Source: a virus
Lineage: Duplodnaviria > Heunggongvirae > Uroviricota > Caudoviricetes
DNA length: 34,379 nt
Strand: one strand, 5' to 3'
IMG/VR virus record: IMGVR_UViG_2778261181_000004
Shown piece after piece: positions 15,172-17,950 of the stretch. Under the pieces are notes generated by a model. That model was not told the origin of the DNA. It worked only from the letters and a program-made list of their open reading frames with translations, and searched no databases. Position 1 is the stretch's first letter. Each line of letters opens with the position of its first letter. A program made the position numbers and the translations under genes.

Positions 15172-15543
15172 ATGCGTGATATTCAAATGGTTCTTGAACG
15201 TTGGGGGGCATGGGTGGCAAATAATCACGAGGATGTGGAATGGTCATCTGTTGCTGCAGGTTTTAAGGGATTAATTCCTTCGAAAGTAAAATCCCGCCCG
15301 CAATGTAGCGATGACGATGGCCTGATCATTAGCTCTGCGATGACAGTTCTTAAGAAAAAGGAACCGTATCAATACGAATTACTGGAAATGTATTATGTGT
15401 ATGGGGTTACATTACGGGCGTTGGGGGTAAAACTGGGGATATCACTTAATCAGGTTGTTATCAGACTGCAGAAAGCTGAAGGGTTTATTGACGGTTGTCT
15501 GGCAATGTTGGGGGTATCTTTAGAAATTGATTGTTACATATAG
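15172..15543 (+). CDS. Late-gene antiterminator Q (phage 82/21-type Q family)
   Basis: ATG 15172 with GGAG 7 nt upstream; N-terminus MRDIQMVLERWGAWVANN matches the Q-family start; lies upstream of the lysis cassette. Confidence 0.7.
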   Translation: MRDIQMVLERWGAWVANNHEDVEWSSVAAGFKGLIPSKVKSRPQCSDDDGLIISSAMTVLKKKEPYQYELLEMYYVYGVTLRALGVKLGISLNQVVIRLQKAEGFIDGCLAMLGVSLEIDCYI

Positions 15544-15618
15544 TAATAAATTCAATCAAAGTAAATAATCATATTTTATTATAACCTCCTGATGATACCT
15601 GTTCATTGGGAGGTTATT

Positions 15619-16236
15619 ATGGATAAAAATGTAGAGCATGTATTAGTTGATGCAATTGAAAATAAGCTATCTTTAACAGTCGTTTACTTAGGAGGGAGCC
15701 AGCCCGGAACATTAAGGAATATTTCTCCGATTAGTATAAATGGGGATAAATTGCGGGCAAGATGCCATAGTTCTGGAGCAGTAAAGGTTTTCAATCTTGG
15801 GAAAATACAGTTACCCAGTGACTCCTGCGCGGTATCTATGCACTATGGAGATTTAGAAGTTAAAGCTTATGAGACGATGCAGAGCGTAAATGACAACTTT
15901 CATGCCCTTTATCCTGAAGGACGATGGGGTGTTGATTTTAATGAGCATCGCTTTGCTTTATTTGATTTTTTTAAAAACGGGAAACGAAAAAAAACGGCAT
16001 TTATGGCAATTGAGTTCAGGGAAAGAGATGAAGAGAAAATAATAACAGGTGTAACAATTGATATTGGTATATCTGGAACAGTGATTTCTGAGAAGTCCCG
16101 AATCCCAAAAAGACGACCATGGGTAGTGGTTGGTCCCGAACACGGAGAATACAGTACTTATTCAACTTTGGACAAGGCTGCTACAGCGTTTTTTGAGAGG
16201 CTATCGTTGATAGCATCCGGCCTGGAAGATAATTGA
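15619..16236 (+). CDS. Hypothetical protein, AT-rich moron directly downstream of Q; function unknown
   Basis: ATG 15619 with GGGAGG RBS; 205 aa; composition clearly more AT-rich than flanking genes; no motif recognised. Confidence 0.6.
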   Translation: MDKNVEHVLVDAIENKLSLTVVYLGGSQPGTLRNISPISINGDKLRARCHSSGAVKVFNLGKIQLPSDSCAVSMHYGDLEVKAYETMQSVNDNFHALYPEGRWGVDFNEHRFALFDFFKNGKRKKTAFMAIEFRERDEEKIITGVTIDIGISGTVISEKSRIPKRRPWVVVGPEHGEYSTYSTLDKAATAFFERLSLIASGLEDN

Positions 16237-16365
16237 TTTTATGTTTGGTATTCAGAGTTCGCCGTGCTTAAGAAAGTCAAGATTCTAAAAATACTGAATG
16301 AGCTACTTGTGTTATAACAAAAATGCTATTAGTGTGTTAAGAGTGGTTACTTCGACACACAACTT

Positions 16366-16390
16366 AAACCCGCCACTGAGCGGGTTTTTT
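16366..16390 (+). terminator. Intrinsic terminator downstream of the moron
   Basis: AAACCCGC / GCGGGTTT stem, CACTGA loop, then TTTTTT. Confidence 0.7.
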
Positions 16391-16488: not shown

Positions 16489-16716
16489 ATGTTAACCAGA
16501 AGGGAAAAAGACATGCTAAAACAGCAAGATATGACAGAAACCGCCGCCGCAGTCCTTCATTTCTTACCTGCTGACAAGTGGGTAACGCCACGCATGATGA
16601 CGAGAACTACCGGAGTAAGCGAAGCCCGGTGCCAGTTAATACTGACTCAGTTAGTTCTGGCGGGTCTGGCGAAGGATAACGGCGGGTACGGGAATAAATT
16701 CAGACGCTGCCAGTAA
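16489..16716 (+). CDS. Small putative DNA-binding (winged-helix-like) protein upstream of the methyltransferase
   Basis: 75-aa ORF; alternative start ATG 16513 with AAGGGA RBS; weak helix-turn-helix-like segment TRTTGVSEARCQLILTQLVLAGLA. Confidence 0.4.
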   Translation: MLTRREKDMLKQQDMTETAAAVLHFLPADKWVTPRMMTRTTGVSEARCQLILTQLVLAGLAKDNGGYGNKFRRCQ

Positions 16717-16866: not shown

Positions 16867-17919
16867 ATGAAAAATACTGTAAAAATAAACAGTGTTGATT
16901 TAATCAACGCTGATTGCCTGCATTTTATTCAGTCCCTGCCTGATGATTCCATTGACCTGATTGTTACCGATCCGCCGTACTTCAAGGTGAAACCCAACGG
17001 TTGGGACAATCAGTGGAAAGTGGACGAAGATTACCTTAAGTGGCTGGACCACTGCCTGGCCCAGTTCTGGCGGGTGTTAAAACCTGCCGGAAGCCTTTAT
17101 CTGTTCTGTGGGCATCGCTTGGCATCTGATATTGAGATCATGATGCGTGAACGTTTCAACGTGCTTAACCATATCATCTGGGCGAAGCCGTCCGGACGTT
17201 GGAATGGGTGTAATAAAGAAAGTCTGCGCGCATATTTTCCTGCCACAGAGCGCGTTCTGTTTGCTGAACATTACCAGGGGCCATATCGCGGCAAAAGTGA
17301 CGGCTATGCAGCAAAAGAAAGGGAACTCAAACAGCACATAATGGCACCGCTGATATCGTATTTCAGGGATGCTCGTGCCGAACTGGGTATAACGGCAAAA
17401 CAAATTGCCGAAGCCACAGGTAAGAAAAATATGGTTTCCCACTGGTTTGGTGCCAGTCAGTGGCAGTTGCCGAATGAGGCTGACTATCGGAAGTTACAGG
17501 CACTGTTTTCCCGTATAGCGGCAGAGAAGTTTCAGGAACAACAACTGGAACAACCACACCACCAGCTGGTGGCATCTTATGATTCACTGAATCGCAAATA
17601 TTCTGAATTGCTGGATGAGTTTAAATCTCTCCGGCGCTATTTCTCCGTATCAGTCTCCGTGCCTTATACCGATGTCTGGATGCATAAACCCGTTCAGTTC
17701 TACCCGGGGAAACATCCGTGTGAGAAACCGGCGGATATGCTCAGGCAAATAATCAATGCCAGTAGTCGACCAGGTGATCTGGTTGCTGATTTTTTTATGG
17801 GATCCGGTTCCACAATAAAAGCAGCAATGGCGCTGGGGCGTCGGGCCTTAGGTGTTGAGCTTGAGTCAGAGCGGTTTAACCAGACAGTGACAGAGATAAA
17901 CGAGCTGGTGGGGAAATAA
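16867..17919 (+). CDS. Orphan beta-class DNA methyltransferase (N6-adenine or N4-cytosine)
   Basis: DPPY motif near the N-terminus (LIVTDPPYF) and AdoMet-binding FxGxG near the C-terminus (DFFMGSGST); no adjacent restriction endonuclease gene. Confidence 0.8.
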
Positions 17920-17925
17920 TCTGGT

Positions 17926-17950
17926 GGCCACGTCAGGTGGCCTTTTTATT
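17926..17950 (+). terminator. Intrinsic terminator between the methyltransferase and the holin
   Basis: GGCCAC / GTGGCC stem with GTCAG loop, followed by CTTTTTATTT. Confidence 0.6.

Follow-up and report, generated by a model that had tools for sequence, protein, structure and literature searches.

WYL domains were known mainly as single-stranded DNA (ssDNA)-sensing switches in transcription factors governing immune systems and the response to DNA damage. The closest described proteins were (i) the winged helix-turn-helix (wHTH)-WYL-WCX regulators DriD, PafBC, CapW, and BrxR and (ii) WYL1 of type VI-D CRISPR-Cas13d (PDB accession number 6oaw), which has an N-terminal ribbon-helix-helix domain and is encoded next to cas13d. 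In DriD, Y168, S172, and R178 contact ssDNA phosphates, and base stacking is provided by R204 and W206 (PMC9186387); CapW binds ssDNA likewise through its RWHVR strand plus a conserved Ser and a conserved Arg (PMC11662680). The gene described here, designated WYL-X (positions 15619-16236), was found directly downstream of antiterminator gene Q in a 34,379-nucleotide stretch of Caudoviricetes DNA, IMG/VR record IMGVR_UViG_2778261181_000004 (the whole stretch is referred to below as the window). Its 205-amino-acid (aa) product was a stand-alone protein with an N-terminal WYL domain and displayed neither the domain composition nor the genetic neighborhood of the above systems.

The sequence comparison was applied to WYL-X together with DriD and CapW. 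A profile made from 71 family sequences matched the WYL segment of DriD in the PDB (E 1.7e-4), with 'YhGGSqPGavReIaP' aligned against 'YEGGSTPGRTREVTP'; the DriD signature Y-GGS-PG-x2-R-E-x2-P was also present in WYL-X, and Y23, S27, and R33 of WYL-X fell on DriD Y168, S172, and R178. By pattern, not by superposition, K56-x-F58 corresponded to DriD R204-x-W206 and K44-V-R46-A-R48 to the CapW RWHVR motif. These ligand-pocket residues (Y23, S27, R33, K44/R46/R48, K56, and F58) were each kept in 59 to 71 of the 71 homologues (83-100%); the ssDNA-contact positions of the known regulators were preserved in WYL-X, and the ligand class is likely the same. The AlphaFold model of WYL-X, made from 71 homologues (mean predicted local distance difference test score 81.7), displayed two domains with a disordered linker between them: a WYL fold (residues 1-66), i.e., a helix followed by an SH3/Sm-like five-stranded barrel, and a C-terminal alpha-beta5-alpha domain (residues 87-200 in the model). 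The C-terminal domain had no conserved catalytic residues. The earlier reading of this DNA from its letters (the sequence-only reading) had recognized no motif in the protein, which no longer holds. NCBIfam gave no match to WYL-X, and Foldseek against BFVD viral structures gave nothing at E <= 1e-3.

Compared to the wHTH-WYL-WCX regulators, WYL-X contained no wHTH: the protein began about 8 residues before the WYL region, the WYL helix began as early as residue 3, and no HTH family of Pfam, NCBIfam, or PADLOC matched it. The WCX dimerisation domain was likewise absent. Lacking both wHTH and WCX, WYL-X cannot be a DNA-bound repressor or activator and stands outside this regulator family; moreover, it did not lie beside a regulated defence operon. 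Compared to WYL1, WYL-X had no ribbon-helix-helix domain, was not located by cas13d, and harbored a different C-terminal domain. It was thus well supported that WYL-X consisted of a WYL sensor domain followed by an output domain of no known family.

WYL-X is not a chance open reading frame (ORF), because it matched phrog_8498 (function unknown) over its full length (E 2e-125), belonged to a family of 949 clusters (see below), and had a nonsynonymous-to-synonymous substitution rate ratio (dN/dS) of 0.23 overall at dS 0.82 between two Escherichia coli alleles. The dN/dS values of the WYL domain, the C-terminal domain, and the linker were 0.15, 0.21, and 1.19, respectively, indicating purifying selection on each of the two domains and an old divergence of the two alleles. 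The same frame was annotated in RefSeq for E. coli S88 (WP_000360285.1, 'WYL domain-containing protein'), right after 'antiterminator Q family protein', and the ORF with its strong GGGAGG ribosome-binding site stood as first read. GGAGG was kept in the variant allele, which had GTG at the position aligned with 15619, so that the real start was 15619 and not the upstream ATG at 15592. The ORF had a GC content of 0.396 (0.32 at third codon positions). The atypically AT-rich composition claimed by the sequence-only reading was borne out as well (Table 1), and the AT-rich stretch was wider than the WYL-X gene, with its onset inside Q rather than at the Q stop: similarity to other phages ended near 15333 and restarted near 16329-16336.

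An exhaustive HMMER search gave 949 clusters at 50% identity, including 191 at E <= 1e-30; nearly all family members were stand-alone proteins of 187-210 aa (about 195). Rare fusions had either an N-terminal transmembrane helix plus coiled coil (P0203, P0219, and P0220) or double zinc ribbons at the C terminus and then membrane segments (P0167), and these fused relatives may be effector-bearing forms of the same sensor. The homologues were found in two main kinds of mobile context: (i) integrons, namely as a single-gene cassette in a long, toxin-antitoxin-rich chromosomal integron of Pseudomonadota genome CP053448 (attC repeats, CTAACAA...GACGTTAG, on both sides of the 195-aa gene at locus L006), in Dokdonella at the start of an attC array, directly after a fragment of an integron integrase, and in Leucothrix with attC-like repeats (attC arrays were present at loci L008 and L026) and (ii) prophages, namely between the large terminase and Rha/ClpP genes in Spongiibacter, next to an integrase (L024), and among prophage cargo (L025). 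A marine prophage (L022, 5570-6570) had its homologue 15 bp after a 138-aa CI-like repressor (PF07022, E 4.6e-4), the repressor gene being divergent from a Cro/YdaS gene; this placement, as that of rexAB in lambda, suggests expression in the lysogen of that phage. No attC site accompanied the window copy. Seven related environmental loci were obtained from a 5-sequence query. A tblastn search of 50,697 phage records gave only two distant matches, one from a phage of Pseudoalteromonas and the other from a phage of Dolichospermum, and no isolated coliphage carrying WYL-X was found among these records.

No neighbor recurred among the loci read, and the genes directly downstream of two homologues (L006 and L010) were unrelated; since neighbors differed in every locus read, which also distinguished WYL-X from the wHTH-WYL-WCX regulators, the gene was regarded as an autonomous accessory gene. 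It was well supported that the family represented autonomous single-gene accessory cargo, mobile in integron cassettes and prophages, and supported that WYL-X was horizontally acquired accessory cargo (moron) in a variable slot adjoining Q. The claim of a moron between Q and the first hairpin/T-run terminator was therefore upheld: Q was identified by Pfam, the terminator folded and was conserved in five phages, the slot contents varied (see below), and homologues occurred in integrons and prophages.

The region immediately upstream of WYL-X was predicted to fold into an RNA hairpin that buried the Shine-Dalgarno sequence (Table 1), with an outer 5-bp helix (15575-15579 paired with 15619-15623) taking in the AUG. 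The minimum free energy was -23.4 kcal/mol (z -5.0; 0 of 200 shuffled sequences as stable), and the variant allele folded equivalently (-22.3 kcal/mol, z -4.7); between the alleles, two wobble pairs became Watson-Crick pairs (U.G to U.A and G.U to G.C), two Watson-Crick pairs became wobble pairs, and one pair was lost. This hairpin was not an intrinsic terminator, because no U-run followed the stem, and no terminator was found between Q and the WYL-X gene or anywhere ahead of 16366. The base of the stem contained -10-like hexamers, with a matching -35 only in the O113 allele (score 7.9).

Read-through transcripts of IS10/IS50 are poorly translated through a paired Shine-Dalgarno/start region (fold-back inhibition), and RNase III cleaves a stem in the lambda N leader. 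The likeness of these two systems to the WYL-X hairpin lay in a long stem pairing the Shine-Dalgarno sequence/start codon with upstream RNA; it was a purely structural analogy, and promoter scores at the WYL-X hairpin were unremarkable. With no terminator after Q, early read-through RNA would cover WYL-X, and on such RNA a hairpin of about 20 bp would close off the ribosome-binding site plus AUG, giving poor translation. Translation might then occur from a transcript starting inside the 5' arm, as in IS10, or alternatively after processing of the stem, as by RNase III in the lambda N leader. Within the hairpin DNA, the minus strand contained the region's best match to the sigma-70 consensus (15578-15605; TGAACA-16-TATAAT, 10/12 positions), which pointed into Q and was partly kept in the variant allele (TGAACG-16-TACTGT); by analogy with lambda paQ, this match could represent a promoter for RNA antisense to Q. 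A 14-bp hairpin was also present between Q and the 409-aa gene of phage phiP27 (see below).

As judged from the retained ssDNA-gripping pocket residues, WYL-X most likely senses or binds ssDNA, or possibly single-stranded RNA. The pocket would grip 3-4 nt of ssDNA as in DriD, CapW, and BrxR, and ligand binding would alter the action of the C-terminal domain, whose output is probably protein binding or oligomerisation because conserved catalytic residues were lacking. The preferred role would be host-protective: ssDNA from an invader in the course of replication would trigger superinfection exclusion or defence. By analogy, a benefit to the lysogen of this kind is most likely, because homologues occurred in integron cassettes, which reportedly contain many defence systems (bioRxiv 10.1101/2024.07.02.601686), because one homologue had a rexAB-like placement, and because a PD-Lambda-1 homologue occupied the same slot in phiP27; the insulated ribosome-binding site also fits a moron shielded from read-through. 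This phiP27 gene (Stx2e phage; L018, 551-1780) encoded a 409-aa protein with a T5orf172/MUG113 domain, lay in the identical slot between Q and the leader with its upstream late promoter pR' (see below), and matched PADLOC PD-Lambda-1 with E 2e-89 over its C-terminal 215 residues. Compared to lysogen-expressed prophage morons/exclusion genes (lambda rexAB, bor, and lom, and PD-Lambda-1), WYL-X was likewise an AT-rich, acquired single gene in a variable slot, and its L022 homologue likewise directly followed a CI-like repressor as rexAB does, but none of these genes had any sequence or fold relationship to WYL-X. A defence or conversion role is plausible on these analogies: the profile proposed by the sequence-only reading kept its support from cargo behavior and the phiP27 slot, while its promoter premise for expression in the lysogen did not (see below). 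Taken as a whole (nature of WYL-X, position, mechanism, and expression), the favored reading was given an even chance of being right.

Counter-defence would draw on the same pocket, with WYL-X made early together with Q and soaking up or capping the ssDNA fragments that would otherwise release WYL repressors such as CapW and BrxR, so that CBASS, BREX, and similar systems of the host stay repressed during prophage replication. Lambda induction derepresses CapW-controlled CBASS via ssDNA on the WYL domain and thereby cuts phage yield about 100-fold (PMC11662680), and WYL-X kept the ligand pocket, missed the DNA-binding output, and lay in the early operon adjoining Q on the same strand. However, chromosomal integron cassettes and the homologue in rexAB position suggest host or lysogen benefit, burial of the ribosome-binding site speaks against strong translation at early times, stoichiometric sequestering of polymeric ssDNA would be demanding, and a literature search found no paper on HTH-less WYL proteins as decoys. 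Counter-defence was regarded as a rival to be taken seriously, although of low probability.

The location of late promoter pR' decided whether WYL-X belonged to the constitutive leader transcript. The sequence comparison was applied to the window and its O113 relative (E. coli O113:H21) together with PhiR40_1, phiP27, SfIV, and cdtI, all small-Q phages (Q of 120-130 aa). These shared the near-invariant leader GTTAAGAGTGGTTACTTCG.CACACA.CTTAAACCCGCC plus the terminator, which was kept with compatible substitutions in the five other phages and annotated as such in phages SfV and Ayreon. The contents of the Q-to-terminator slot varied: besides WYL-X, there were a forward 409-aa gene in phiP27, a reverse lipoprotein gene in PhiR40_1, reverse ORFs in cdtI and SfIV, and nmpC in the DLP12-type hybrid 434B. 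A TAnnnT hexamer abutted the leader in all six (TAGTGT at 16330-16335 in the window), and in the alignment a TTG-type hexamer was read 16-17 nt upstream of it in four of the six (TTGTGT in the window and O113, TTGCGG in phiP27, and TTTACA in PhiR40_1) and was not evident in SfIV or cdtI. All 17 nt of TTGTGTTATAACAAAAA (16307-16323), reading as extended -10 TGnTATAAC, were identical between the two E. coli alleles, whereas the non-coding DNA around them was diverged with a 36-nt indel. Long-Q phages (Q of 234-250 aa; SfV, Ayreon, and Stx2c phages) had only the terminator and beyond in common, the leader being absent.

The sequence block separating the -35-like hexamer from the -10-like one co-varied with the HTH class of Q, falling into classes (window plus O113; cdtI plus SfIV; PhiR40_1 unique; and phiP27 unique), and this is the behavior expected of a Q-binding element; in phage 21, the Q-binding element lies between -35 and -10 (PMC6606751). 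The window Q matched the Q21 structures 6jnx and 6p18 only over residues 13-89, with no alignment of the HTH region to Q21. Transfer of the phage 21 Q-binding element (TGAGCA repeats) was tried and rejected: TGAGCW was not enriched (45 matches versus 41 expected), and Q21 aligned only with the N-terminal part of Q, so that the TGAGCT at 16299 was not used as evidence. No clear direct-repeat Q-binding element was found. From conservation, pR' was considered likely to lie at 16307-16335, giving the order Q, cargo, pR', leader, tR'. With pR' beyond the cargo, WYL-X would be outside the constitutive pR'-to-terminator leader, contrary to the earlier supposition of a late promoter just after Q with the gene in a Q-independent leader transcript.

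That supposition would put pR' in the 75-bp spacer right after Q, with WYL-X as the first gene of the pR' transcript and constitutive in the lysogen without Q, following the lambda and Q21 paradigm of pR' directly after Q (bioRxiv 10.1101/651190). The spacer contained -10-like hexamers (TATTAT at 15577-15582 and TATAAC at 15580-15585) and a 13-nt block CTCCTGATGATAC identical in both alleles, and the lack of a terminator ahead of 16366 was consistent with it. The conserved block was accounted for by the hairpin, however, and the alleles had no -35 in common, with an 11-nt indel where one would be expected. The five related small-Q phages, furthermore, kept leader, terminator, and TAnnnT edge whatever filled the slot, even reverse-strand genes; cdtI had only 23 bp between the Q end and the reverse ORF, leaving no room there for promoter, pause site, and terminator; the block upstream of the leader co-varied with the Q HTH class; and other Stx2 phages shared sequence only from the TAnnnT hexamer onward. 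A spacer pR' was therefore held to be unlikely.

The WYL-X allele of the window was found at >= 99% identity in 51 of 5,426 complete E. coli genomes, and 22 further E. coli genomes had the variant (second) allele, whose identity to it was 80% at the DNA level and 70% at the protein level; both 90% clusters were limited to E. coli and Shigella. In at least 12 complete genomes of Shiga toxin-producing E. coli (STEC), including O113:H21, O104:H21, and O43, a distance of 2 kb separated the second allele, with its own Q allele, from stx2 downstream of it. The O113:H21 module (FWSEC0010; L015, 3873-8215) had the order Q, WYL-X, terminator, 65-aa ORF, methyltransferase, tRNA-Ile-Arg-Arg, and stx2AB. 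Contrary to the earlier proposal, the WYL-X slot was accordingly not the slot that holds stx: both belonged to the same general late-operon-proximal region downstream of Q, but stx2 came after tR', about 2 kb further downstream, and WYL-X before the inferred pR', and on this arrangement of the sequences they are two separate slots whose transcription would be controlled differently. Uropathogenic E. coli and wastewater strains had this module but no stx.

WYL-X was present in 74 of the 75 E. coli genomes bearing the same Q 3' half, and this constant inheritance would be explained by the position of the gene between the DNA-binding half of Q and the promoter block that Q must recognize. That WYL-X is a mere passenger without role in this phage, trapped there because its removal breaks the late switch, agrees with this linkage, with the interrupted and shortened copies (see below), and with the occluded ribosome-binding site, but is unlikely given purifying selection on both domains (dN/dS 0.15-0.21 at dS 0.82, with a freely evolving linker), the conserved start codon, Shine-Dalgarno sequence, and hairpin, and the conservation of the family across about 950 clusters and unrelated contexts.

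Several results weigh against the favored reading of WYL-X as a host-protective ssDNA sensor with pR' beyond it. As to the protein, the single WYL-X sequence reached only 14 bits with Pfam WYL PF13280 (residues 8-64, E 0.052), below the 21.8 cutoff; the check for a defence family in PADLOC-DB v2.0.0, proposed earlier, gave the generic WYL model PDLC01457 as the sole and weak match (E 0.019, 12.6 bits) and no defence family; the C-terminal domain gave no clue to effector activity; and a literature search on the protein accessions found no paper naming WYL-X. As to expression, no convincing own promoter of WYL-X common to both alleles was found, and pR' was placed by conservation only: TTGTGT-17-TAGTGT had an unremarkable position-weight score of 4.9 (mean best score per 200 nt, 6.3), the position-weight promoter scan discriminated no candidate from background, and the consensus scan gave no plus-strand promoter at either candidate pR' position. 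As to necessity, WYL-X was split by IS4-like ISVsa5 in strain 266917_2 (L014, 4332-6287) and, in further assemblies of E. coli, cut down to 144 aa (L034, 3001-3435), so that it is dispensable and can be lost without destroying the prophage.

Table 1. Coordinates of WYL-X and the associated features in the window
Feature	Position	Strand	Remarks
WYL-X, 205-aa stand-alone WYL-domain protein	15619-16236	+	205 aa plus stop
WYL domain, N-terminal (residues 1-66)	15619-15816	+	One helix plus SH3/Sm-like barrel
C-terminal alpha-beta5-alpha domain (residues 87-205)	15877-16233	+	Low-confidence loop 134-166; no known family
Shine-Dalgarno GGGAGG	15608-15613	+	Direct sequence reading; 5 nt ahead of ATG
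RNA hairpin burying Shine-Dalgarno	15581-15617	+	15-bp stem (arms 15581-15595 and 15603-15617); loop 15596-15602
Antiterminator Q, small (about 123 aa), Q21/Q933W family	15172-15543	+	Pfam PF06530, E 5.2e-48; RefSeq limits in E. coli S88
Candidate pR' plus Q-specific block	16307-16335	+	TTGTGT 16307-16312, TGnTATAAC 16310-16318, TAGTGT 16330-16335; by conservation
Leader GTTAAGAGTGGTTACTTCG... common to small-Q phages	16336-16365	+	Near-invariant in window, O113, PhiR40_1, phiP27, SfIV, and cdtI
Intrinsic terminator, probable tR'	16366-16390	+	Stem 16366-16373/16380-16387 (8 bp), 6-nt loop, T-run to 16390
AT-rich co-inherited block (Q C-terminal HTH half, spacer, WYL gene, and promoter block)	15334-16335	.	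GC 0.377 versus 0.496 for window

Downstream of the terminator, the window contained a 75-aa ORF (16489-16716; phrog_331, with weak MarR/TrmB-like winged-helix matches) that was conserved across many lambdoid and Stx phages and preceded an N6/N4 DNA methyltransferase gene (16867-17919). Just after the methyltransferase gene and ahead of holin, another terminator-like hairpin (GGCCAC-GTCAG-GTGGCC, with TTTTTATTT next to it on the downstream side) was located at 17926-17942, and Ayreon had an annotated terminator at the equivalent place; late transcription probably passes at least two terminators. The window also had a second AT-rich block (1-2525, GC below 0.42), which encoded a DUF2713 protein (1-708), an antitoxin-like protein with a SocA/Panacea domain (1466-1954), and, adjacent to the latter, a 182-aa ORF without family match (1977-2525); the last two may be a Panacea-type toxin-antitoxin pair, and PADLOC gave no match to the genes of this block. 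Rfam and tRNA scans of the window gave no matches.

The proposal with the widest reach, put forward here with low confidence, is that the stand-alone WYL protein represents a new single-protein module gated by nucleic acid, either a minimal ssDNA-triggered exclusion/defence factor disseminated by integrons and prophages or a phage decoy silencing the ssDNA alarm of CapW- and BrxR-type repressors, together with a cargo slot of small-Q lambdoid phages wedged between the DNA-binding half of Q and its cognate late promoter, which would make the cargo hard to lose by recombination. If the prediction is true, a large mobile family keeps the WYL sensor and replaces every known output domain, which would be a different use of the switch. 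A pR' on the far side of the cargo would change the reading of the Q-to-stx region in these phages. The second allele resides in Stx2-converting prophages of STEC negative for the locus of enterocyte effacement, next to the Q gene governing toxin expression, and any effect of WYL-X on induction, late transcription, or competing phages would matter for the release of toxin and the spread of the phages.

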